This document shows positions 44,220-56,343 of a DNA stretch of 64,000 bases, in pieces. Under the pieces are notes generated by a model, which did not search any database, was not told where the DNA came from, and saw nothing but the letters and a program-made list of their open reading frames with translations. The position numbers and the translations under genes were made by a program. The stretch is from Arenicellales bacterium. Its GTDB lineage: Bacteria; Pseudomonadota; Gammaproteobacteria; Arenicellales; JAJDZL01. The stretch's first letter is position 1; each line of letters opens with the position of its first letter. Where the stretch lies: NCBI GenBank assembly GCA_965243645.1, contig CBDEVD010000005.1:965132-1029131 (forward strand). Reading direction: 5' to 3'.

Positions 44220-44945
44220 ATGAGATCACATGTTGCGATAGTTACCGGCGGGACGCGGGGAATTGGCGAGGCCATTTCTATCGCATTAGCGGAAGCAGGG
44301 TATAAAGTTGCTGCAAATTATGCAGGCAATCATGAACGAGCCCAGGCATTTAGCGAACGAACTGGTATTCCAGTTTATGCTTTTGATGTCAGCGAATTTG
44401 ATCAATGTGCAACTGGCGTGAAACAGATCACAGAAGAACTTGGTGTTGTTGACATTCTCATCAATAACGCTGGAATTACCCGTGACGGTACGCTGCACTC
44501 GATGGACTTTGACAATTGGAATGCCGTATTGCAGACTAATTTGTCGTCCTGTTTCAATATGTCTCGATGTGTGATCGATGGCATGCGCGAGCGTGGATTT
44601 GGACGAATTGTCAATATCGGTTCAGTCAATGGACAAGCAGGTCAATATGGTCAGGTCAACTATTCTGCTGCGAAGTCTGGAATTCATGGCTTTACCAAAG
44701 CACTGGCTAAAGAAGGCGCTCGCAAAGGGATTACAGTGAATGCGATCGCACCCGGTTATGTTGACACTGATATGGTACGTGCGGTACCGGAGAAAGTATT
44801 AGAGAAGATCATCGGAACGATACCCGTTGGGCGTCTAGGCAAGGCTGAAGACATTGCGCGTGGGGTTATGTTTCTGGTCTCTGAGGAGGCTTCGTTCATA
44901 ACCGGCTCGACGATTGATATCAACGGTGGTCAACACATGTATTGA
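44220..44945 (+). CDS. phaB: acetoacetyl-CoA reductase (SDR)
   Basis: 241 aa with TGGTRGIGEAI, NNAGI and YSAAKSG motifs. Sits next to phaR and the phaEC genes. Confidence 0.85.
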   Translation: MRSHVAIVTGGTRGIGEAISIALAEAGYKVAANYAGNHERAQAFSERTGIPVYAFDVSEFDQCATGVKQITEELGVVDILINNAGITRDGTLHSMDFDNWNAVLQTNLSSCFNMSRCVIDGMRERGFGRIVNIGSVNGQAGQYGQVNYSAAKSGIHGFTKALAKEGARKGITVNAIAPGYVDTDMVRAVPEKVLEKIIGTIPVGRLGKAEDIARGVMFLVSEEASFITGSTIDINGGQHMY

Positions 44946-45418
44946 TACCCATGGCAGAATCTCGCACAATCAAGAAATATTCCAATCGGCGTCTGTACGA
45001 CACTGAAGAAAGCTGCTATGTCACCTTGTCGGAGGTCCGAGAACTGGTGATTAGCGGAATCGAGATCGTCGTTGTAGACGTTGTTACTGGGGAGGATATT
45101 ACCCGGCAGATCTTGATTCAGATTATTTCTGAGCAGGAGACAGGCGGACAACCAATGTTTACCAAGGAATTGCTGACACAGATGATCCGATTTTATGGTG
45201 GTGCTTTTCAGAGTGTGTTTACGGATTACCTGGGAAAGACGGTTGAGATGCTGAATCACCAACAGCAGGCTTACTATGAGCAGTGGAACGACATGCTCAA
45301 TACAGATTCCATGACTTCAGTTGGCGAATTGACACATCAGAATCTCGAACGCTGGAAAGAGATGCAACAGGAGATGCTGAAGCTATACGGTTTTCAGCAA
45401 CCAAATAATAAAGACTGA
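44942..45418 (+). CDS. phaR: polyhydroxyalkanoate synthesis repressor PhaR
   Basis: N-terminal [20 protein letters not shown] is the PhaR signature. Confidence 0.9.
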
Positions 45419-45464
45419 GTGCAGCGCCGATCGTAGTTCACGAGTGGTTGTTCGGGGTAGTGGC

Positions 45465-45635
45465 ATGGACTACAAGGTATACATGTGTGTCGTTTGCGGC
45501 TTCATATATGAAGAAGAGTATGGGCTGCCAGAGGAAGGCATTGCGCCCGGTACCCGCTGGGAGGATGTTCCTGAAACTTGGCAATGTCCGGATTGTTCCG
45601 CAATGAAAGAAGACTTCGACATGCTGGAAATCTGA
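45465..45635 (+). CDS. rubredoxin
   Basis: Two CxxC knuckles (CVVCG, CPDC) with rubredoxin spacing. ATG 45465 is preferred over GTG 45444. Confidence 0.85.
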
Positions 45636-45661
45636 CAGAAGGTATAACCCTTACCGTTGTC

Positions 45662-46558
45662 TTAACCTACTGTATTGAAGTGATAGTGATCAATGTCCTG
45701 TTTACTCAGCAGCAGGACTACGGATTCGCCGCTGCGGCTGGTTAACCAAAGGAAAGGGATGGTCGGATATTCCTCTTCCAGTACGTTAGCATAATTACCA
45801 AGTTCGATCAGCAAATAGCCGTCATTCGACAGATAGTTGCCTGCCTGGCTGAGAATCTGCCTGACAAAAACAAGTCCATCACTGCCTGCGTCAAAAGCCT
45901 GGCGAGGTTCATGCAGATATTCGCGCGGCAACGCTTCGAGTTCCGAGGTTGCGATGTAGGGTGGGTTACATAGGATCAAGTCGTATTTACGTCCTGACAG
46001 ACTGTTGAACAAGTCGCTTTGGATGGTTGTAATCTGCGCTCCGACCTCGTGACGGTTGATGTTGATCTTCGCTACGTCGAGAGCCTGGGTGTCGATGTCG
46101 GCAGCATCAATTTTCAATTGTGGATAATTCAACGCCATCGCGATGGCGATGCAGCCGCTGCCGCAACAAAGGTCAAGTGCATGATGCGATTGGTGCGGCT
46201 GTATCCACGGACTCAAACCGTCCTGGATCAAGTCGCCAAAATGAGACCTAGGCACGATTGCACGTGGATCTATGTAGAACGAAAAGCCTGCAAACCAGGC
46301 CTCACCAACGAGATAGGCCAAGGGTTTGAGGGTCTTGATGCGCTGTTCAACCAAATGGCGAAGTGCTTGGGATTGCTGTTCTGTAACGCCGTGATCCGCG
46401 ACTTCGTCGTAATTGCGGTCCATCATCTGCGTTATATGCAAGGTCGCCCAAATTGCCTCGTCACGGGAGTTGTCGCAGCCGTGACCAAAGTGTGCGTCCG
46501 AATGTTCCAGGCGCGCAGTTGCCCAGACTACACAGTCGTTGATTGTATTGAGCGGCAC
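45662..46558 (-). CDS. prmB: 50S ribosomal protein L3 N5-glutamine methyltransferase
   Basis: 298 aa with FGHGCDNSRDEA N-terminal motif, SAM motif LDLCCGSGCIA and NPPY. Confidence 0.85.
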   Translation of the reverse strand: MPLNTINDCVVWATARLEHSDAHFGHGCDNSRDEAIWATLHITQMMDRNYDEVADHGVTEQQSQALRHLVEQRIKTLKPLAYLVGEAWFAGFSFYIDPRAIVPRSHFGDLIQDGLSPWIQPHQSHHALDLCCGSGCIAIAMALNYPQLKIDAADIDTQALDVAKININRHEVGAQITTIQSDLFNSLSGRKYDLILCNPPYIATSELEALPREYLHEPRQAFDAGSDGLVFVRQILSQAGNYLSNDGYLLIELGNYANVLEEEYPTIPFLWLTSRSGESVVLLLSKQDIDHYHFNTVG

Positions 46559-46590
46559 TGCGTTAGCCGGCAGCGACCAATCCTTATGAC

Positions 46591-46624
46591 TTCAAAAGAA
46601 GGCTGCCTGTTGAACGGCACAGGC
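46591..46624 (-). terminator. candidate intrinsic terminator downstream of rpmE
   Basis: On the minus strand: GCCTGT-gccgttca-ACAGGC (46605-46624), followed by a T-rich tract (agccTTCTTTTg). Confidence 0.4.
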
Positions 46625-46637
46625 TTGATGGAGAGGT

Positions 46638-46838
46638 TTAGAAGCCGTATTTTTGCTTGAATTTACCGACTCGTCCTGCGGTGTCAACAATTTTTTGTTT
46701 GCCCGTAAAAAAGGGATGGCAAACTGAGCAGATTTCGATGCTGAGGTCTTGTTTCAGCGTAGAGCGCGTTTTAAAACTGTTGCCACAACCACAAGTGACC
46801 GTAATTGTTGAGTATTGTGGGTGAATGTCTTTTCTCAT
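46638..46838 (-). CDS. rpmE: 50S ribosomal protein L31
   Basis: [27 protein letters not shown]... with the zinc-binding CxC...CxxCHPFFTG pattern. Confidence 0.95.
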
Positions 46839-46975
46839 GTCTCGATGAATCCTGTAGCTCAGGGAGTGGGTTGGATTAACGTCGCTAAGGGCGCAAATGA
46901 TAAGTCAAATCGGGGTTACTTATCAACTCGGTTTGATTGCCTTAAGCAACTTCAATAGTTGGTCGATTACCGCGA

Positions 46976-48244
46976 TCAGGAAATCCGCTTCATTGATTCG
47001 AAGAAGTCGGCATTGGTTTTGGTTTCCTTGAGCCGTTCGGTCAGCAGTTCAATCGCTTCCAGATCGTCGGATGAATGCAGGAGCTTGCGCAGTGCCCAAA
47101 TCATTTTCAACTCGGTCGGTTCGGTCAGCAAGTCTTCGCGACGCGTTCCAGAACGAGAGATGATGATGGACGGATAAACCCGTTTTTCGGCGATTCTGCG
47201 ATCAAGGTGGATTTCCATATTACCGGTGCCCTTGAATTCCTCATAGATGACTTCATCCATCTTGGAGCCAGTTTCAATTAAGGCTGTCGCCAGAATGGTA
47301 ATACTGCCACCTTCCTCAATGTTGCGGGCCGCACCAAAAAAACGTTTCGGCCGTTGCAGTGCATTGGAATCGACACCACCGGTGAGTACCTTACCGGAAG
47401 CGGGTGCCACGGTGTTATACGCACGGGCGAGTCGGGTAATGGAATCAAGCAGAATGACCACGTCGCGTTTGTGTTCGACCAGTCTTTTGGCTTTTTCGAT
47501 AACCATCTCCGCAACTTGAATATGGCGGGAGGCCGGTTCATCAAAGGTAGAGGAGACCACTTCGCCTCGCACTGAGCGCTGCATTTCGGTAACTTCTTCG
47601 GGGCGTTCATCGATTAGCAGTACGATCAACTCACATTCCGGGTTGTTGGCGGCAATCGAGTGGGCAACCTGTTGCAGCATGACGGTCTTCCCGGTTTTGG
47701 GAGATGAGACGATTAAGCCGCGTTGGCCTTTACCAATTGGGGCGACAAGATCGATTATTCGAGCGGTTAAGTCTTCGGAGCTGCCGTTACCGCGCTCAAG
47801 TCGAATGCGTTCATCAGGATGCAGCGGTGTGAGATTTTCAAACAGAACCTTGTCCCGCAGTCGGTCAAGCGGTTCATTGTTGATTTGTTCAACCTTGAGA
47901 AGCGCAAAGTAGCGCTCCGAGTCTTTGGGCGGTCGTACCAGGCCTGAAACTGTATCACCGGTACGCAGATTGAAACGGCGAATTTGACTTGGTGAGACGT
48001 AGATGTCATCGGGTCCAGCTAGATATGATCCCATCGGTGAGCGTAAAAAACCAAAGCCATCCTGCAAGGTTTCCATTACCCCTTCGCCGGTAATGTTACC
48101 GCCGTTTCGTGCTTCAGCTTTGAGAATGGCGAAAATCTGGTCCTGCTTTCTCATTCTCGAGACGCCGTTAATATTCGACCTGCGTGCAAGTTCGACCAGT
48201 TCTGTTGGTGATTTGGCTTTTAACTCGGTTAGGCTAATTCCCAT
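46976..48244 (-). CDS. rho: transcription termination factor Rho
   Basis: 422 aa, unmistakable Rho sequence (N-terminal [18 protein letters not shown], Walker A SPPKTGKT). Confidence 0.97.
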
Positions 48245-48390
48245 AAATATTGCCTCAGTTACGGCTGTAGATAGACCGGTGCCTCTATGGCACCGTTAAA
48301 GAAAAGATAAGATTGATTAAGGTATGGCAGGAAGTGATTAATGCACCCAATGGGTGCTCGGAATAATTCTATTGCCTCCAGGCGAATAAA

Positions 48391-48717
48391 TTAGACGGAT
48401 TCATCAATAAAAGTGGTCAATTGAGATTTCGAAACGGCCCCGACTTTGGTTGCTTCTACAACGCCGCCTTTAAAAATCATCAAAGTTGGAATTCCGCGAA
48501 TACCATAGTTGGTTGGAGTTTGCGGATTTTCGTCAATATTCAGTTTTGCAACTTTCAGCTTGCCTTCATATTCGCCCGCGACTTCTTCCAGTATCGGTGC
48601 GATCATTTTACAGGGGCCGCACCACTCAGCCCAATAGTCAACAATTACAGGAATTGCTGATTGCAGCACTTCGTCCTGAAAATTTGAATCGGTGACGTGT
48701 ATGATCGATTCTGTCAT
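48391..48717 (-). CDS. trxA: thioredoxin
   Basis: 108 aa with the WCGPC active site, upstream of rho as in many gammaproteobacteria. Confidence 0.97.
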
Positions 48718-49163
48718 GTGAATAGTCTACGGGTTAACTCAAGAAAGTCTGCGCTACCAAATTCTGTTGAACTTGTTTTGGCAGGAGTGGTTATTTTATT
48801 TGCATTGACGAAAAAATTTTAGAATTTTCGTTTTTTTGCAATTGACAATTATCCAATTAAATTTGGCAGATTCTCAACTGTATCTCGCACAGTGAGAAAA
48901 ATCGTGTGCCAAGATTGTACCCAATTGAGCAAATAAAAAACAAGGTTTTTCGATCGAGTGCCATGATCATCAGCAATTGGCTTTTGACAAGCGGGTGCTC
49001 CCGAAATGATTTTTTCAGCAAATGGATCTTAGCAATTCCTGCATATTTATTAATTTGTTCACGCAGTGACAGGTATAGTAATGAAGTATCAAGTGATCGG
49101 TTTGGCCAACGAAATTACGCACCATCAGTGGTCTGAGGATTAGCTCGCACCAAGACTTGAATA

Positions 49164-50969
49164 TTGTGCGTCAGTCTCCGGAATAAAACGAAAAATAACA
49201 GCAGACTTGTGACATTGTCATCCCCGCCGTCTTCAAAATCCGCTAAACGTACCACTGCGTCCCAATGGTATGAACAAAATGCAGAGTATGCATCGAATAC
49301 CTACGAAAGTACCTCTTTTCGGGAGGTGCACGAACAAATGTTGGAGCTGTTGCCAAAAAAGGCAGGCACGGTGCTGGATGTAGGCTCGGGTTCGGGGAGA
49401 GATGCTGCCGGCTTAGCAGAATTGGGGCATCAAGTTGTTGCAGTTGAGCCAAACAATAAAATGCGCAACCGCGCCATGCAAATCCATTCGTCAGACAGAA
49501 TTCACTGGCTGAACGACAGTCTCCCTAAACTCAACAAAGTACGAAATTTTGCGCTCACGTATGACTTCATTCTTTTGAGTGGTGTATGGGTGCATGTCGC
49601 GCCCAATGAACGGCGGAGCACCTTTCGACGACTGGCCAGTTTATTGACTCCCGGTGGGATAATGTGCGTTACGCTTCGCCATGGTCCTGCGGATGCTGCG
49701 AGAGGATTTTGGGAAGCAAACTCAGAAGAAATCCTGCAACTTGCCCGTGATTTTGGCTTGTTTGCGACGCATGTCCGTGAAGAAGACGATCTACTGCGTC
49801 GTACCGGAATTTCCTGGACACGCATCGTTTTAAGATCACCGGGTGATGGCACCGGATCGCTCCCACTGTTGCGAGGAATCATACTAAATGACAGCAAGAG
49901 TTCAACGTACAAATTGGCACTGTTACGCGTGCTGGTGCGTATTTCTCAGTCTGCAGGCGGTATGGCACGATTGAAGAGTACAGACTACGTTGAACTTCCG
50001 CTGGGACTATTTGCACTCTACTGGCTGCGGCTATATCGGCCTTTGCTAGCGGAAAATCTACCGCAACTTCCGGACAATGTATCAGGTGGTGTAAGGCTCG
50101 GATTTGCGAAAGAGGCCTTTCAAAAACTACACAGTTTATCGGCACTGGATTTTCGGGTGGGAGCAAGATTCCAGTCAAGTTACGCAAAAACTGTCCATCA
50201 AGCACTTCAAACAATCTGTGCAACGCTGACAAAAATGCCTATGCACCACATTACGTATCCAGGCAGTTCAGAGCAGGTCTTTGTTTCGAAAAAAGCCACT
50301 GCAACATTCAATCCAAGGCAATTGATTTTGAACTCTGACTATCTGTTCAGTTTTGGCTGTGTCAAAATTCCCTATGAACTCTGGCAGAGCGCCCAGAAGT
50401 TTGGCGCATGGATAGAACCCGCAATAATTGCCGAGTGGAAGCTGTTGATGAAGCGTTACGCGTACAAGCAGGATCGGGTTCTCGATCCTGAATCAATGGA
50501 ACGAGCCTTGATCTGGAGCGAACCCAGTCGGACGACAACCTTTTCCCGCAGCAGAGCACTGCGTTTGTACGAAGATGGTGTGATTCGACATTGTGTTTGG
50601 TCTGGCAAGAGACTAAGCTCAAATACGATTGACATCGATCATTGTTTTCCTTACTCAGCCTGGCCTTGTGATGATTTGTGGAATTTATTACCGACTGCAC
50701 GCAGTGTGAATCAAAAACAAAAGCGTGAGAAAATACCGAGTCTACTGAAACTAAATGACTCTAGGGATAGGATTCTGAACTGGTGGAACTGCGCTTATAT
50801 CAATGACGAGGCCATCGTTGAGGATCAGTTTTTTACGGAAGCCGCTGCAAGTTTACGGCTCGATTTGGGCTCGTCTCAACATCTGGATGATGTATTCGAT
50901 TCGGTATCAATACAGCAGACTCAGTTGAAATTCAATCAGCAAATCCCTGAATGGAACGATTCCGGATGA
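49164..50969 (+). CDS. fusion protein: class I SAM-dependent methyltransferase, an unknown central domain and a C-terminal HNH endonuclease
   Basis: MTase motifs VLDVGSGSGRDA, VVAVEPN, LTPGGIMCV. HNH-like core IDIDHCFPYSAWPCDDLWNLLPTARSVNQKQKREK. There is no ATG before MLELL. The likely start is GTG 49209 (VTLSSPPSS...) or TTG 49164. Confidence 0.7.
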   Translation: MCVSLRNKTKNNSRLVTLSSPPSSKSAKRTTASQWYEQNAEYASNTYESTSFREVHEQMLELLPKKAGTVLDVGSGSGRDAAGLAELGHQVVAVEPNNKMRNRAMQIHSSDRIHWLNDSLPKLNKVRNFALTYDFILLSGVWVHVAPNERRSTFRRLASLLTPGGIMCVTLRHGPADAARGFWEANSEEILQLARDFGLFATHVREEDDLLRRTGISWTRIVLRSPGDGTGSLPLLRGIILNDSKSSTYKLALLRVLVRISQSAGGMARLKSTDYVELPLGLFALYWLRLYRPLLAENLPQLPDNVSGGVRLGFAKEAFQKLHSLSALDFRVGARFQSSYAKTVHQALQTICATLTKMPMHHITYPGSSEQVFVSKKATATFNPRQLILNSDYLFSFGCVKIPYELWQSAQKFGAWIEPAIIAEWKLLMKRYAYKQDRVLDPESMERALIWSEPSRTTTFSRSRALRLYEDGVIRHCVWSGKRLSSNTIDIDHCFPYSAWPCDDLWNLLPTARSVNQKQKREKIPSLLKLNDSRDRILNWWNCAYINDEAIVEDQFFTEAAASLRLDLGSSQHLDDVFDSVSIQQTQLKFNQQIPEWNDSG

Positions 50970-51245
50970 CGCTTTCACTGGTGCTGAGATGTAAAGATGA
51001 ATTGTCGTGGCTTCTCCAGTTCCGATTATTTCGCTAGGTTTGCGTTTTTTGAGTTCTACGTTGCTATTGCAATCGTCTGTGCTGAATGTGCCTGATGATG
51101 GCAGTGCTTCACTCTCGTTAAGCGGATGTGATCTTATTAGTGATATTCACGACTCACCTTATCAAAGATAATAGGCTTCGACGTTTACCGGACTGATTCC
51201 TGTTGTAAGCGCCCAGCATTGACGAAACCCTAATTTCTAAAAAGT

Positions 51246-51839
51246 ATGAAGATCTCCGAACGAATACAACATGTAATTGAGACTGAAGCGCAAGCAATCC
51301 GATCAATTCAAGTTACCCCTGCATTTGCAGAGGCTGTTGAATTGCTGCTGTCCTGTCGCAACAAGATTTTGACGACTGGAATGGGTAAAGCGGGATTGAT
51401 TGCCAAGAAGTTTGCCGTCACGCTTTGTTCAACCGGCACTCCTGCAGTTTATATCCATCCCGGTGAAGCAGCACATGGAGACTTGGGTGTTATTTCCAAG
51501 TCCGATTGTCTGGTGGCATTTTCAACCAGTGGTAAAACGCGAGAAGTGATCGAGATGCTCAGCCTGGCGCAGCACCTGGGGCTCGGTAAAGTGGTCGGTG
51601 TGACTTCCCACCCAGAGTCAGAATTACGCGGATATTGCGACATCATCCTCGAAATGGGCGAGATCAAGGAGCCTTGTCCGCTGGGTTTGACGCCGTCAGC
51701 CAGTATCGCGGCAATGAATGCGATTGCTGACGCGGTGACCTTGGCACTGATGGAACAAAAAGGCATTACCAAACAACAGTATGGACTACGTCATCACGGC
51801 GGTTATCTCGGTCGGGTTGCCCGACTCGATAACGAGTAA
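51246..51839 (+). CDS. SIS domain protein (KpsF/GutQ-like isomerase core without CBS pair)
   Basis: 197 aa with TGMGKAGLIAKKFAVTLCSTGTPA, HGDLGV and FSTSGKTRE motifs. Confidence 0.75.
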   Translation: MKISERIQHVIETEAQAIRSIQVTPAFAEAVELLLSCRNKILTTGMGKAGLIAKKFAVTLCSTGTPAVYIHPGEAAHGDLGVISKSDCLVAFSTSGKTREVIEMLSLAQHLGLGKVVGVTSHPESELRGYCDIILEMGEIKEPCPLGLTPSASIAAMNAIADAVTLALMEQKGITKQQYGLRHHGGYLGRVARLDNE

Positions 51840-51856
51840 TCTCGCCCAGCGGGTTG

Positions 51857-54166
51857 TTACTCGAGGGGATTTTGGAGTAACGACCAGACCGCAAACGGCG
51901 TTGCTGGTGGTTTGATCACGACAAACCGACCCGCGCGGCTCAAAAGGTCGGAGAGTGCATTACCGATTGCACCAGGTGCACCGAGATTGGCAACCTCGCC
52001 AACTCCCTTGACGCCGAGTGGGTTTGTTTTGCACGGTGTTGGCACCTTGTCAAGCTTGATGAACGGTAAGTCTTGCGCTCGCGGCAGTTGGTAGTCCATC
52101 AGTGAGCCGCTCAGCACCTGACCGCTTTGTTCGTCGTCGAATCGTATGGCCTCCATCAAGGAAGTGCCGACAGCTTGTGCCCAAGACCCGTGTAGTTGGC
52201 CGTCGACTATTTGTGGAAATAGTACGCGCCCAATATCATCCACGCCGACCAGTTGAATAATTCGAATGACGCCGGTATCGGGGTCACACTCCAGTTCCGC
52301 CACGTATGCACCACAGGGATGTGTTGTATTGATCCCCGCAAAATTCGCTTCCCCGACGCAGCTCGACTCATCATTTGATTGCATTTCTATCTGGGTATCC
52401 AGCCCGGCTAGTTTCAGACGCCGATCAGTTCCAGGAACGTAAAATTCACCGGCTGCGTACGCGAGGTCATCAGGACGAACTTCAAGTGTGTCTGATGCGA
52501 TTCGCCGCGCATTATCAAGCAAATTTTCTACAGCCCGGACCACAGTTGTTCCTGCAATTGCAACCAATGAAGAACCACCAGTACCGCCTCCGATCGGATA
52601 CTCGGCTGTGTCACCCTGAATCACTTTGATTCTTGACGGGTCGATTTCCATGACATCGGCAACCAGTGCGGCGAGTGTTGTCGCATGTCCTTGTCCACCC
52701 GCCTGCGTTCCCGTCAAAACCTGAACACCGCCGCCCGCTATTAGCTTCACTTGGCATGCTTCACTAACCGAACCCCCAGTGGAGTGCATGTACATGCCAA
52801 GTCCAATACCTCGTAGCAAACCTGATTGTTCAGCCAATCTCCGTCGTCGGGGGAAATCGTTCCAATCTGATTGTTCGACGACACGATTAAGCAGCATTGT
52901 AAAGTTCCCACTGTCAATGGTTTGCCCGTTCAGCATCGAATATGGGAGGTTTTCAGGCTGTACAAAATTCCTTTTTCGCAGCTCCAACCGATCGATGTTG
53001 AGTTCAAATGCCGCCTTATCGATCAATTGCTCAAGGGTACAGACCGTTTCTGGTTTGCCGGCGCCTCGATAGGCATCGGTTGGCGGCGCATTGGTAAAAA
53101 CACCACGGTTTCGAAAATAAAGACAAGGAATCTTATAAGTGTGTCCTACGACCGTGTATGCATATACTGAGGCAATTGAGGCGCCGACATAGCTTAGGTA
53201 GGCGCCTAAATCTGAAATCGTATCGCACTGATAGGCTGTAATGTGTCCCTCTTGATCGAATCCCAGCTGGGCATAATCCACTCTGGCCCGTCCCTGGCAA
53301 TCTGCGAGGAATGATTCTGATCGGGTGGCTGTCCACCCCACCGGCTGCCCGGTTTTTTGTGTGCTTATCAAGACCAGGGCGTATTCGGGATAGGGAAAAA
53401 TTTTCATCCCAAAACTGCCACCCACATCCTTGGTGATGACGCGTAAGCCATTCGGCGGAAGGTGCAGTATGTCTTCGGTCAGCACGCGGTGAATCATGTG
53501 AACACCTTGTGTTTGTACATTGAGGACCAGTTGTTCAGCCTCGAAATCGTAATGCGCCACTGCAGATCTGGGTTCTATGGGTGTGATTGCCATTCTTGGG
53601 TGGTCGACTTTAATTGAAACGACATGCGCGGCTTCGGATAGTGCTCGCGCTACCTCGTGGGCATCACCGCGGCTAAAGTCATAGCTTAGATTGTGTTGTG
53701 TGTCGCACCAGATATCGGCTGAATCAGTCATCGCGTTTTCAACGTTGCTGTTCGATGGCAGCTGTTCGTAGTCGACATCGATACATTCGGCGGCCTGGAT
53801 TGCATTGGCGAGTGTGTCCGCAACAACAAACGCAACAGGCTCACCAACATGACGAACCCGATTGGTTGCCAGCACATCACGGCGTGGTTTAAAGATCGAC
53901 CCGTCTTGCGGATCTGGAAAGGCTGAAACGCAAGGTAGTGGTCCGATACCATCGGCAAGCAAGTCTGCACCAGTGAGAACCAGCTTTACTCCGGGTGACA
54001 GTAATGCTACGTTTGTATCAATATGATGGATAACTGCGTGTGGATAAGGAGACCGAAGAACATGTCCGACCAGATGTTGAGTGCCAGTCAGATCGTCTAC
54101 GAAGCGACCGCGGCCGGTCACCAGGCGGTGATCTTCCTGTCTTGGTTTCGTGCTGAGCGAATTCAT
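51857..54166 (-). CDS. xanthine dehydrogenase/aldehyde oxidase family molybdopterin-binding large subunit
   Basis: About 769 aa. The N-terminal PRQEDHRLVTGRGRFVDDL a/b-hammerhead start and GGSFG motif are typical. ATG 54166 is preferred over 54211. Confidence 0.85.
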   Translation of the reverse strand: MNSLSTKPRQEDHRLVTGRGRFVDDLTGTQHLVGHVLRSPYPHAVIHHIDTNVALLSPGVKLVLTGADLLADGIGPLPCVSAFPDPQDGSIFKPRRDVLATNRVRHVGEPVAFVVADTLANAIQAAECIDVDYEQLPSNSNVENAMTDSADIWCDTQHNLSYDFSRGDAHEVARALSEAAHVVSIKVDHPRMAITPIEPRSAVAHYDFEAEQLVLNVQTQGVHMIHRVLTEDILHLPPNGLRVITKDVGGSFGMKIFPYPEYALVLISTQKTGQPVGWTATRSESFLADCQGRARVDYAQLGFDQEGHITAYQCDTISDLGAYLSYVGASIASVYAYTVVGHTYKIPCLYFRNRGVFTNAPPTDAYRGAGKPETVCTLEQLIDKAAFELNIDRLELRKRNFVQPENLPYSMLNGQTIDSGNFTMLLNRVVEQSDWNDFPRRRRLAEQSGLLRGIGLGMYMHSTGGSVSEACQVKLIAGGGVQVLTGTQAGGQGHATTLAALVADVMEIDPSRIKVIQGDTAEYPIGGGTGGSSLVAIAGTTVVRAVENLLDNARRIASDTLEVRPDDLAYAAGEFYVPGTDRRLKLAGLDTQIEMQSNDESSCVGEANFAGINTTHPCGAYVAELECDPDTGVIRIIQLVGVDDIGRVLFPQIVDGQLHGSWAQAVGTSLMEAIRFDDEQSGQVLSGSLMDYQLPRAQDLPFIKLDKVPTPCKTNPLGVKGVGEVANLGAPGAIGNALSDLLSRAGRFVVIKPPATPFAVWSLLQNPLE

Positions 54167-54275
54167 GCAGATAATATTGAATTGACAGTCGGGAGTAAGG
54201 AATCCAGACAAATATACAAGAAGGCCTAGCGCGACGCTTCATGATGAATGTCATTGGCCTGAATTTATTCTTGAC

Positions 54276-55184
54276 TCAACCACCCAACAACAGGAGCACA
54301 ATTCCGCCACAAATCAAGATGATGCCCAATAGTTCTGGTGTGCTGACCCGTTCTCGAAAGAATACTGTCGTGGCGACAAAGGTAAATAGCAATTCAATCT
54401 GTCCAAGCGCTCGTACATAGCCAGCGTTCTGCAGGGTAAAGGCAGAGAACCAGCAGATAGAAGCCAAAGCTCCCGCGGTACCGGCAGCACCCGCCCACCG
54501 CCATTCGCGTAGTACTCGCATAAATTCACCGGGCTGGCGTACGATCAGGTAACCGCCCATCAGTACGGTTTGGATGATCAGCGCGACAAACAGAGTCCAA
54601 GCTGCACTGATCATGAAGTTGTCGTATTGCAAAGCTAACGACGCACCTCGATAGAATACCGACGAGCCACCCAGCCATACAGCCGTGATCAGCCCAATCA
54701 GAGTAGGACGACGAAACAGACCGATACGTAAGCTGCTTAACGTCAGTTTATTTTGACCGACTGATAACAATATTACGCCGAATGACGAGATGACAATGGC
54801 TCCGATTGCTAAGTGACTCAGCCAGTCGCCGAGCAACACTGCACCGAGTAATACGACAACAATCACCTCCAGCTTGGAGAAAGTTGTACCGACCGCGAAA
54901 CTCTTAAACGAAAACATCCACAGCAAACACGCAGTAAATAGAATCTGGCAGATTCCACCCAACAGGCAAAACCAAAGAAATTTGGAGTTGCTGACTGGCA
55001 GTGGGTGGTCACCACTGCCGAGAAGCAGCCACAAATACACGCCCGCGATGGGCAGTGCGTAGAGAAACCGAGCATAACTGGCACCGCCGACCGACAACCG
55101 TTGCTTGAGATGTTTTTGCAGCGCGGAGCGAATGTTTTGAAAAAACGCTGCCGCGATCGTTATGAAGATCCAGGTTTCAGGCAT
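54276..55184 (-). CDS. DMT superfamily (EamA-like) transporter
   Basis: 302 aa, ten predicted helices and a two-repeat EamA architecture. Confidence 0.75.
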   Translation of the reverse strand: MPETWIFITIAAAFFQNIRSALQKHLKQRLSVGGASYARFLYALPIAGVYLWLLLGSGDHPLPVSNSKFLWFCLLGGICQILFTACLLWMFSFKSFAVGTTFSKLEVIVVVLLGAVLLGDWLSHLAIGAIVISSFGVILLSVGQNKLTLSSLRIGLFRRPTLIGLITAVWLGGSSVFYRGASLALQYDNFMISAAWTLFVALIIQTVLMGGYLIVRQPGEFMRVLREWRWAGAAGTAGALASICWFSAFTLQNAGYVRALGQIELLFTFVATTVFFRERVSTPELLGIILICGGIVLLLLGG

Positions 55185-55332
55185 AGGTCATGGAAGTGCA
55201 GTCCAATCACATAATTTGAACTCACTTATCAATTTTTGGCATTCCTGTCGATTGACTGAGTGTTGTATATTAAATTGCGTCGATTAACCAAAAACTAATC
55301 GGATTTCAATTACTCGGAGAATAATTTGTCCT

Positions 55333-56343
55333 ATGGTCCAGGCAATCCTTAAGCAAACTTGGTCAGAATCGGAAGTGCAGGCATTATTTGAGTTGCCTTT
55401 CAGTGATTTGCTGTACCAGGCGCAAACTGTCCATCGACAAAGTTTTGAGCCCAATCAGGTACAAAAAAGTCGGTTGGTCAATATCAAGACAGGCGGCTGT
55501 CCTGAAGATTGCAAGTACTGCAGCCAGTCAATTCGATACTCGACCGAGGTAGAGCCAAGCAAATTGATGTCAATCGAAGCAGTTATAGCCGATGCCAAGT
55601 CGGCCAAGGCTGATGGGGCGAGCCGCTATTGTATGGGTGCCGCCTGGCGCGGACCGAAGCCCAGTCACATGGATAAGCTCTGTACCATGATCAGTGAAGT
55701 TAAGGCACTGGGACTTGAAACCTGTATGACCTTGGGCTTATTGAATCAAGACCAGGCGATGCAGTTAAAGGCTGCAGGACTTGATTATTACAACCACAAC
55801 GTTGACACCTCCCCCGAATACTATCAGGAAATCATCACTACGCGTACCTTTGAAGATCGTCTGCAGACGATTGACTACGTTCGCGAAGCCGGTATGAAAG
55901 TGTGTTGTGGGGGTATTCTTGGTATGGGTGAATCACAACAGGATCGCGGCAGTATGCTGCGGGTACTTGCCAACATGGAAGAGCCACCGGAAAGCGTGCC
56001 GATCAACGTATTGGTACCAATTCCGGGCACACCGCTAGAAAATGCCAAACCCGTCGAACCGATTGAATTTGTTCGTACCATTGCGGTTGCTAGAATCATG
56101 CTGCCAAAATCAGTGCTCCGGCTGTCAGCCGGACGCCGTACGATGTCTGAAGAGCTGCAGGCACTGTGCTTTTTTGCGGGTGCCAATTCCATTTTTGTGG
56201 GGGATCGACTGTTGACGACCGACAATATCGAATACGATCATGACTCGGCATTATTTAGCAAATTGGGTATTGAAGAAATGCCACCTGCGAAATTCGACGA
56301 GCCCGCGATGGCGCCTCCAATCAGGGTCGCGGTAGCGCAATGA
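55333..56343 (+). CDS. bioB: biotin synthase
   Basis: Radical [14 protein letters not shown] motif and YNHNVDTS. Confidence 0.95.

Follow-up and report, generated by a model that had tools for sequence, protein, structure and literature searches.

The window analyzed here comprises 64,000 nucleotides of an Arenicellales bacterium (assembly GCA_965243645.1, contig CBDEVD010000005.1, forward-strand positions 965,132 to 1,029,131) and carries a gene encoding, in a single chain, a class I S-adenosylmethionine (SAM)-dependent methyltransferase (MTase), a family-specific domain here termed X, and a Cas9-type HNH nuclease domain. Our best explanation, put forward tentatively, is that this gene constitutes an accessory, horizontally spread one-protein anti-invader (conflict) system of an undescribed family. 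The C-terminal HNH domain would be the effector, cutting nucleic acid, most likely DNA, while the TehB/TPMT-like MTase would not protect host DNA and would serve as a sensing or licensing enzyme, either reading SAM status or methylating a non-canonical nucleophile tied to invasion. Domain X would couple the MTase event to the nuclease and would probably supply the nucleic acid contact. The defense role, the substrate of the nuclease, and control of the HNH domain by the MTase rather than the reverse are what we infer from the comparisons below.

A reading of the DNA letters alone (the sequence-only reading) had proposed a fusion of MTase, central domain, and HNH nuclease, and this three-part architecture is real (Table 1). 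One unbroken plus-strand open reading frame (ORF) spans 49164–50969 and encodes 601 amino acids when counted from TTG 49164, the numbering used for residues throughout. Every motif quoted in that reading lies within the ORF, namely VLDVGSGSGRDA (residues 69–80), VVAVEPN (90–96), FILLSGVWVHV (135–145), LTPGGIMCV (161–169), STYKLALLRVLVRI (247–260, in domain X), DIDHCFPYS (490–498), DDLWNLLP (503–510), and VNQKQKREK (515–523). Structures were predicted with AlphaFold2 for the whole protein (45-sequence alignment, pLDDT 81, pTM 0.80) and for X plus HNH (residues 224–601, 60 sequences, pLDDT 91.5, pTM 0.91).

The N-terminal domain displays the defining features of class I SAM-dependent MTases, with a GxGxG motif I, an acidic residue ending β2, a motif III Asp, and a Rossmann fold. 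Pfam class I MTase models (Methyltransf_23/25/12/11) cover residues 37–171 with E-values of 7e-13 to 4e-10, the Pfam TehB model matches at 1.9e-8, and the predicted structure is a minimal class I fold in which a three-helix N-terminal lid precedes the seven-stranded Rossmann core. PDB sequence matches were cg3271, CmoM, and TehB, and Foldseek returned small-molecule or RNA MTases only (E 3e-9 to 2.5e-7), including cg3271, toxoflavin N-MTase, CmoM, the bacillithiol MTase NmbA, TehB, NodS, and a halide MTase; the tRNA enzymes METTL6 and CmoM are among the nearest solved MTases. NCBIfam gave sub-threshold matches only, to the small-molecule MTases CpaM, TehB, UbiG, and CmoM (and to Cas9). The domain resembles TehB/TPMT MTases in fold, in its GxGxGR(D/N) motif I, in its N-terminal Y-E...H lid, and in size, but falls below every named NCBIfam equivalog cut-off and is fused to X and HNH. 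Among 232 distinct full-length family members, the set underlying all conservation figures, G74 is conserved in 100%, G76 in 97%, G78 in 99%, E95 in 98%, and D118 in 99%, and the domain, taken to bind SAM, is probably catalytically active.

Features of DNA MTases were sought in the protein, and neither PCQ/ENV nor (D/N/S)PP(Y/F/W) is present; the motif IV position after β4 reads S-A/G-V-W-M/V-H, the Pfam models N6_Mtase and DNA_methylase do not match, and the PADLOC model MTase_II matches only at E 0.004, over motif I. Lacking motif IV, PCQ/ENV, and a matching Pfam model, the domain is not recognizable as a DNA amino-MTase (N6A/N4C) or C5-MTase; together with the Pfam and Foldseek matches, this bears out the earlier assignment to the small-molecule type. 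The same observations weigh on an explanation as a single-chain type IIG-like restriction-modification (RM) enzyme, in which the MTase would methylate host DNA at a motif read by X and the HNH domain would cut unmethylated DNA. As in the type IIG/IIC enzymes MmeI and BpuSI, MTase and nuclease share one chain here; both centers are conserved, X could serve as the target-recognition domain, and restriction genes are often neighbors. In type IIG/IIC enzymes, N6A DNA MTase motifs of the gamma class occur together with a target-recognition domain and a PD-(D/E)XK nuclease, whereas the present protein joins a ∼190-residue TehB-like MTase without DNA-MTase motif IV to an HNH domain. The motif IV position is S-A-V-W-M-H, there is no PCQ/ENV, and every match by sequence or by fold is to a small-molecule or RNA MTase (TehB, TPMT, CmoM, NodS, and thiol and halide enzymes). 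In addition, the same MTase subfamily pairs elsewhere with a membrane protein, where DNA protection makes no sense. No PADLOC REase_MTase_IIG model matches the protein, and with its MTase devoid of DNA-MTase motifs, we excluded it from the type IIG and single-chain RM classes and regard an RM function of this kind as improbable. PADLOC also reported mad2 (E 1.3e-17), a match confined to the Rossmann fold. The MADS system is encoded by a mad1–8 operon, in which mad6–8 are indispensable and mad2 encodes an N6-adenine DNA MTase, and its hidden Markov models were built from HHpred alignments (bioRxiv 10.1101/2023.03.30.534895), owing to which they may be generic. Given the restricted match and the lack of neighboring mad genes, membership in MADS was rejected.

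The C-terminal domain matches Pfam HNH_4 over residues 477–525 (E 1.8e-7; 31.5 bits against a cut-off of 22) and contains the D-H pair, two downstream Asn residues, and ββα fold that characterize HNH nucleases of the HNH_4/Cas9 subtype. Its core follows the pattern C-V-W-S-G-K...D-I-D-H...N...N-Q-x-Q-K with key residues D492-H493, N507, N516, and K520, each kept in 98 to 99% of members, so that the core proposed in the sequence-only reading proves intact and conserved. The His-to-Asn and Asn-to-Asn spacings of 14 and 9 are those of H840, N854, and N863 in SpCas9. Foldseek matched Cas9 HNH domains with a probability of 0.96 to 1.0, yet with E-values of just 0.01 to 0.1, and the Cas9 models of NCBIfam and PADLOC match the region weakly (sub-threshold in NCBIfam). 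A conserved helical extension follows the core and ends in QQxPEW. A zinc site formed by C477, C494, and C502 was considered and set aside as not family-wide, C494 being conserved in 88% and C502 in 75% of members. The resemblance to the HNH domains of Cas9 and IscB thus extends to the pattern C-x-[WY]-[ST]-G-K...D-H...N...N-Q-x-K and a Foldseek probability of ∼1, whereas the protein has no RuvC, REC, or protospacer-adjacent-motif-interacting domain. An RNA-guided mechanism was rejected because there was no RuvC match, no conserved flanking non-coding element across 72 to 73 loci, and no Rfam match.

Domain X is confidently folded in the model (pLDDT ∼90) and contains a KSSTYKLALL helix and a WIEPAxxAEW helix; R237, Y249, K250, Q301, P359, G398, W407, W416, P419, and W425 are conserved in ∼100% of members. 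A Pfam scan of 16 family members found nothing on X, a profile of X against PDB sequences found no relative (best E 0.29), and Foldseek of the X plus HNH model against PDB and BFVD gave no X match among the matches listed, which were filled by Cas9 HNH domains. A profile of X alone recovered 967 representatives at 50% clustering, essentially the MTase-X-HNH family and its fragments. The sequence-only reading had been reminded, by part of this region, of a DNA-sensing winged-helix head; neither that nor a sulfur-binding head found support from Pfam, the PDB profile, or Foldseek, and none of the known modification-reading heads (SRA, EVE/PUA, winged helix, sulfur-binding domain [SBD], DUF3427, McrB-N, or GmrSD) was detected by these three means, although X itself may be a novel reader. 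Type IV modification-dependent HNH endonucleases such as ScoMcrA, TagI, and VcaM4I combine a sensor head with an HNH domain (PMC6765204, PMC7897488). The present family resembles them in carrying N-terminal accessory modules and a C-terminal HNH domain in one polypeptide and in occupying the same islands, often directly beside HNH_2-type enzymes. Unlike them, it has as its head an apparently active SAM MTase plus a domain X without known relatives, rather than SRA, EVE/PUA, winged helix, SBD, or DUF3427, and its HNH domain is of the HNH_4 (Cas9) subtype, not HNH_2 or classic HNH.

A first search found 2,419 protein clusters among 8,000 scored candidates, and the best 120 clusters were nearly all full-length (∼570–600 residues) at 46 to 78% identity and annotated at source merely as “class I SAM-dependent methyltransferase” or “methyltransferase domain-containing protein.” The family spans alpha- and gammaproteobacteria and cyanobacteria, its sources and plasmid hosts including Arenicellales, Acidiferrobacterales, Boseongicola, Roseomonas, Azospirillum, Sphingobium, Sinorhizobium, Pseudoalteromonas, Leptolyngbya, and Trichocoleus. 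No Pfam or NCBIfam model spans the full protein or X, and no described defense family in PADLOC, NCBIfam, or Pfam claims the gene, in keeping with the earlier failure to recognize one. Full-text literature searches yielded no description of an MTase-HNH or TehB-HNH fusion, nor of phosphorothioate S-methylation. Relative to the closest relative, L008 (78% amino acid identity), the ratio of nonsynonymous to synonymous substitution rates (dN/dS) has a value of 0.12 over the whole gene, with the MTase at 0.15, X at 0.13, and HNH at 0.04; dS is near saturation, which makes these values approximate. All three parts are under purifying selection. Since the catalytic residues are conserved and dN/dS is low, both enzymatic centers are maintained by selection. 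Matches of 380 to 430 residues suggested natural MTase-less members, a candidate class of which at least P0156 is a gene-call artifact, since the ORF behind that call (L004:7539-9278) runs through 580 codons without interruption and takes in the MTase. Many members are 5′-truncated in public gene calls (owing to non-ATG starts or upstream-gene overlap), giving artifactual “MTase-less” proteins. True MTase-less X-HNH_4 homologs were found only at 24 to 27% identity, on cyanobacterial (Tolypothrix) and Deinococcus plasmids.

The gene is an accessory insertion that differs in presence between close relatives. In L008 it occupies the same site, between trxA and the SIS-domain gene, and over 10 kb the two genomes run colinear, with 79.5% of nucleotides identical, the gene being the most diverged of 12 neighboring genes (78% amino acid identity against 80–99%). 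In L120 and L122, whose SIS proteins are 86 and 83% identical to that of the window, trxA lies directly beside the SIS gene across a spacer of ∼565 nt, and tblastn found no gene remnant in either. Homology to L120 by blastn ends at 48807 and restarts at 51246, identifying the gene together with its flanking non-coding DNA as the indel. Horizontal insertion, as envisaged in the sequence-only reading, therefore holds in that the empty L120 and L122 sites reveal an accessory indel, with its recency qualified by the presence of the gene at the same site in L008; the insertion is older than the split from L008 and thus not recent. The composition of the gene is not anomalous (47.9% GC against 49.1% for the window), and it bears no compositional signature. 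A scan of genome contigs with a single-protein query gave 3 loci. Other Arenicellales genomes hold members at unrelated sites, beside insertion sequence (IS) elements, a DUF4143 ATPase, or AbiE-like genes; across the family, sites differ between genomes and lie beside IS elements and transposases, and five genera have plasmids that carry full-length members.

These distributions are relevant to an explanation as housekeeping-type nucleic acid processing, that is, RNA or tRNA methylation with cleavage, or repair, by a gene that merely happens to be mobile. Consistent with such a role, tRNA enzymes (CmoM and METTL6) are among the nearest solved MTases, and core genes surround the gene in the window, where it has been long retained under purifying selection. 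Against it, presence varies between close relatives, genomic sites vary with some members plasmid-borne, and adjacency to restriction and toxin genes recurs, and we give this explanation little credence. The insertion could alternatively represent a selfish element, either a free-standing homing-type HNH gene or an addiction module inserting between conserved genes, as its single-gene, intergenic character might suggest. A perfect 12-nt direct repeat, GCATTGACGAAA, is present at 48802–48813 and 51216–51227 and brackets almost exactly the segment absent from L120 and L122. As a target-site duplication this repeat was rejected, not being conserved in L008; by estimate, ∼0.2 such 12-nt repeats are expected by chance, and one of this length is not improbable in 2.6 kb. 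While the bracketing of the inserted segment would favor a selfish element, the repeat is subject to these objections, no full-length copies on viral contigs and no multi-copy spread were seen, and a 586-residue, three-domain protein with a conserved MTase is atypical of homing endonucleases; we consider this explanation very unlikely.

To characterize the genomic company of the family, every ORF in a set of 88 loci, 80 of them metagenomic and 8 taken from genomes, was clustered. No universal partner gene emerged, so the gene, which the sequence-only reading had seen standing alone, is solitary and forms a one-gene unit. The sole recurrent real neighbors are defense-type genes. Genes for HNH_2 proteins (PF13391) of ∼305 residues (range ∼290–315) directly adjoin the family gene in 10 of the 88 loci by raw count (L004:6628-7542, L021, L032, L036, L045, L062, L020, L087, L063, and L048); the majority immediately precede it in the same orientation, separated by at most ∼60 nt or overlapping it by 4 nt. 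In one subclade the HNH_2 gene and family member look like an operon, overlapping by 4 nt in L004. Further HNH_2 genes are found at L010:5816-6766 and L011:6139-7005. The adjacent HNH_2 proteins have at least four different N-terminal heads, and the family members beside them are not each other's nearest relatives, suggesting that several HNH_2 associations arose independently. One such head has the form YDDLIAERYHFP...GDWIxYRE, and another carries an NKPILLLSI motif; a PDB profile search of the YDDLIAERYHFP head gave no match. The MTase-less X-HNH_4 homologs of the Tolypothrix and Deinococcus plasmids likewise adjoin HNH_2 genes. A PLD-helicase-DUF3427 gene (PADLOC mREase_IV, E 4.5e-213) is adjacent in 4 to 5 of the 88 loci and HipA in 4. 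Individual loci add a GmrSD gene, a type I RM system, and a serine recombinase near the HNH_2 gene of L004; McrBC, VapBC, and another HNH gene on the Roseomonas plasmid; a dGTPase and a NERD protein on the Pseudoalteromonas plasmid; AbiE-like genes at L002; HigB at L006; and HigB and TnpB, or IS elements, at others.

Full-length members were absent from viral DNA (50,697 phage records plus IMG/VR contigs), where the searches found only stand-alone MTases of ∼200 residues, 35 to 44% identical to the MTase of the window. In 17 of 19 viral loci (L093–L111) this MTase is immediately preceded by a conserved ∼190-residue protein with three predicted transmembrane (TM) segments; in Escherichia phage phi458 (L012:2336-3519) the pair is Orf2-Orf3, adjoining the integrase. 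The 3-TM plus MTase cassette occurs in 29 of 5,426 complete Escherichia coli genomes; PADLOC and Pfam recognize nothing in it except the MTase fold. On two Rhizobium plasmids (L117:5540-8309 and L118:6619-9585) the TM part is fused to the MTase (333–339 residues), directly after a DGQHR protein (TIGR04172, “DNA phosphorothioation-associated DGQHR protein 1,” DGQHR_dnd_1; E 4e-139) and within dndBCDE or dndCD loci. A small TM-rich ORF precedes this arrangement. The Rhizobium TM-MTase may represent an undescribed dnd-associated module, and both the prophage cassette and the TM-MTase fusions appear undescribed in the literature found. These proteins share with the MTase of the window the subfamily (35–45% identity) and the N-terminal lid but differ in having a membrane protein as partner and in residing within prophages or dnd loci. 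A Streptomyces example joins a subfamily MTase to a GNAT. The partners of a single MTase subfamily thus vary, being X-HNH, a membrane protein, or (once) a GNAT, and a conserved enzyme with swapped effectors would resemble sensor-effector immune systems. The membrane partner makes self-protective DNA methylation hard to reconcile with this subfamily. Between the two possibilities raised in the sequence-only reading, control of the HNH domain by the MTase fits the comparative data better, and self-protection plus restriction in one chain seems the less likely. An extension of this idea, which we consider rather unlikely, is that the TehB-like subfamily is a new type of immune sensing enzyme with interchangeable effectors (X-HNH or the 3-TM protein), which it would trigger on reading SAM status (e.g., SAM depletion by phage SAM-degrading enzymes) or on methylating an invasion-specific soft nucleophile such as phosphorothioate sulfur; immunity of this form would be methylation-gated and non-RM.

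The dnd linkage also invites a type IV-like explanation, in which the protein would act against DNA bearing a soft nucleophile (e.g., phosphorothioate sulfur), the MTase recognizing or S-methylating the group and the HNH domain cutting. The resemblance of the MTase to TehB, TPMT, and bacillithiol, thiol, and halide MTases, the position of the TM-MTase paralogs directly after DGQHR_dnd_1 in two Rhizobium dnd loci, and the co-localization of the family with type IV enzymes are consistent with this, as is a member joined in frame to a DndB-like domain. That member is an 875-residue ORF (L083:488-3115) in which MTase-X and the first half of HNH (through DIDH..PWTAWP) run into a DndB-like DGQHR domain without its first ∼45 positions, both partners being truncated at the junction, either by a real deletion fusion of neighboring genes or as an assembly chimera. 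Apart from the L083 junction, however, DndC, DndD, and DGQHR were absent within 8 kb of the 88 full-length loci and from the window; the dnd link thus consists of paralogs of one genus plus one possibly chimeric contig, and no known sulfur-binding domain is detectable. With linkage found only in the TM-MTase paralogs (L083 excepted), the gene was not classed as a dnd-associated module, and we view a nuclease against soft-nucleophile DNA as quite unlikely.

Several considerations weigh against the one-protein anti-invader system that we favor. Most loci have no defense neighbor in their readable flanks, and the neighbor counts are raw and without a genomic background. PADLOC finds just a generic MTase-fold match (mad2) and weak Cas9 HNH matches, X yields no functional clue, and in the window the gene lies among housekeeping genes and has been long retained (79% nucleotide colinearity with L008). 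The effector-swap argument moreover presumes an effector role, itself unproven, for the 3-TM protein.

The boundaries of the gene and its surroundings were also defined (Table 1). The most likely start is GTG 49209, giving 586 residues, rather than TTG 49164 or ATG 49338, because the N termini of the closest homologs (586–587 residues, beginning MKSHS...) align there. The gene caller (P0001) begins at ATG 49338, giving 543 residues, a call accounted for by a strong GGAGG 11 nt 5′ of that in-frame ATG (window 49322–49340); this start would drop the lid helices of the MTase with Y36, Y47, and H56, which are conserved in 87 to 94% of members. The AT-rich spacers described in the sequence-only reading are real, with GC contents of 37.9% (48718–49163, 446 nt) and 43.1% (50970–51245, 276 nt), below both gene and window, and its neighbors are as claimed, trxA and rho on one side and the SIS-domain gene on the other. 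Neither spacer matched Rfam, and no terminator-like site was found in the downstream spacer. The flanks (44220–48717 and 51246–56343) hold ordinary core genes, fully syntenic with L008, L120, and L122, encoding an acetoacetyl-CoA reductase-like SDR, phaR, rubredoxin, a PrmB-like MTase, rpmE, rho, and trxA and, on the SIS side, the SIS protein, a molybdopterin dehydrogenase, an EamA transporter, and bioB.

Table 1 Coordinates, in window positions, of the MTase-X-HNH gene, its domains, and adjoining segments
Feature	Position	Strand	Remarks
MTase-X-HNH gene, likeliest reading	49209–50969	+	586 aa from GTG 49209; homolog N termini align there
Class I SAM-dependent MTase, TehB/TPMT-like	49251–49838	+	Residues 30–225; Pfam, PDB sequence, Foldseek
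Family-specific domain X	49839–50573	+	Residues 226–470 (245 aa); mixed α/β
Cas9-type HNH (HNH_4) nuclease core and helical tail	50574–50966	+	Core residues ∼471–535
Segment absent from relatives (gene and flanking non-coding DNA)	48808–51245		blastn, tblastn, gene maps
Upstream spacer, common to divergent trxA	48718–49208		∼38% GC; no Rfam match
Downstream spacer before SIS gene	50970–51245		43% GC; no Rfam match

If the gene does encode a defense nuclease, it would enlarge the known set by a widespread one-gene system of only 1.8 kb, built on a combination missed by current defense finders, in which a SAM MTase of non-DNA type is joined through X to a Cas9-type HNH domain. It would also give a function to the prophage cassette of membrane protein and MTase and to the TM-MTase genes of dnd loci. 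In such a system, SAM or methylation chemistry would control an immune effector rather than mark self DNA.

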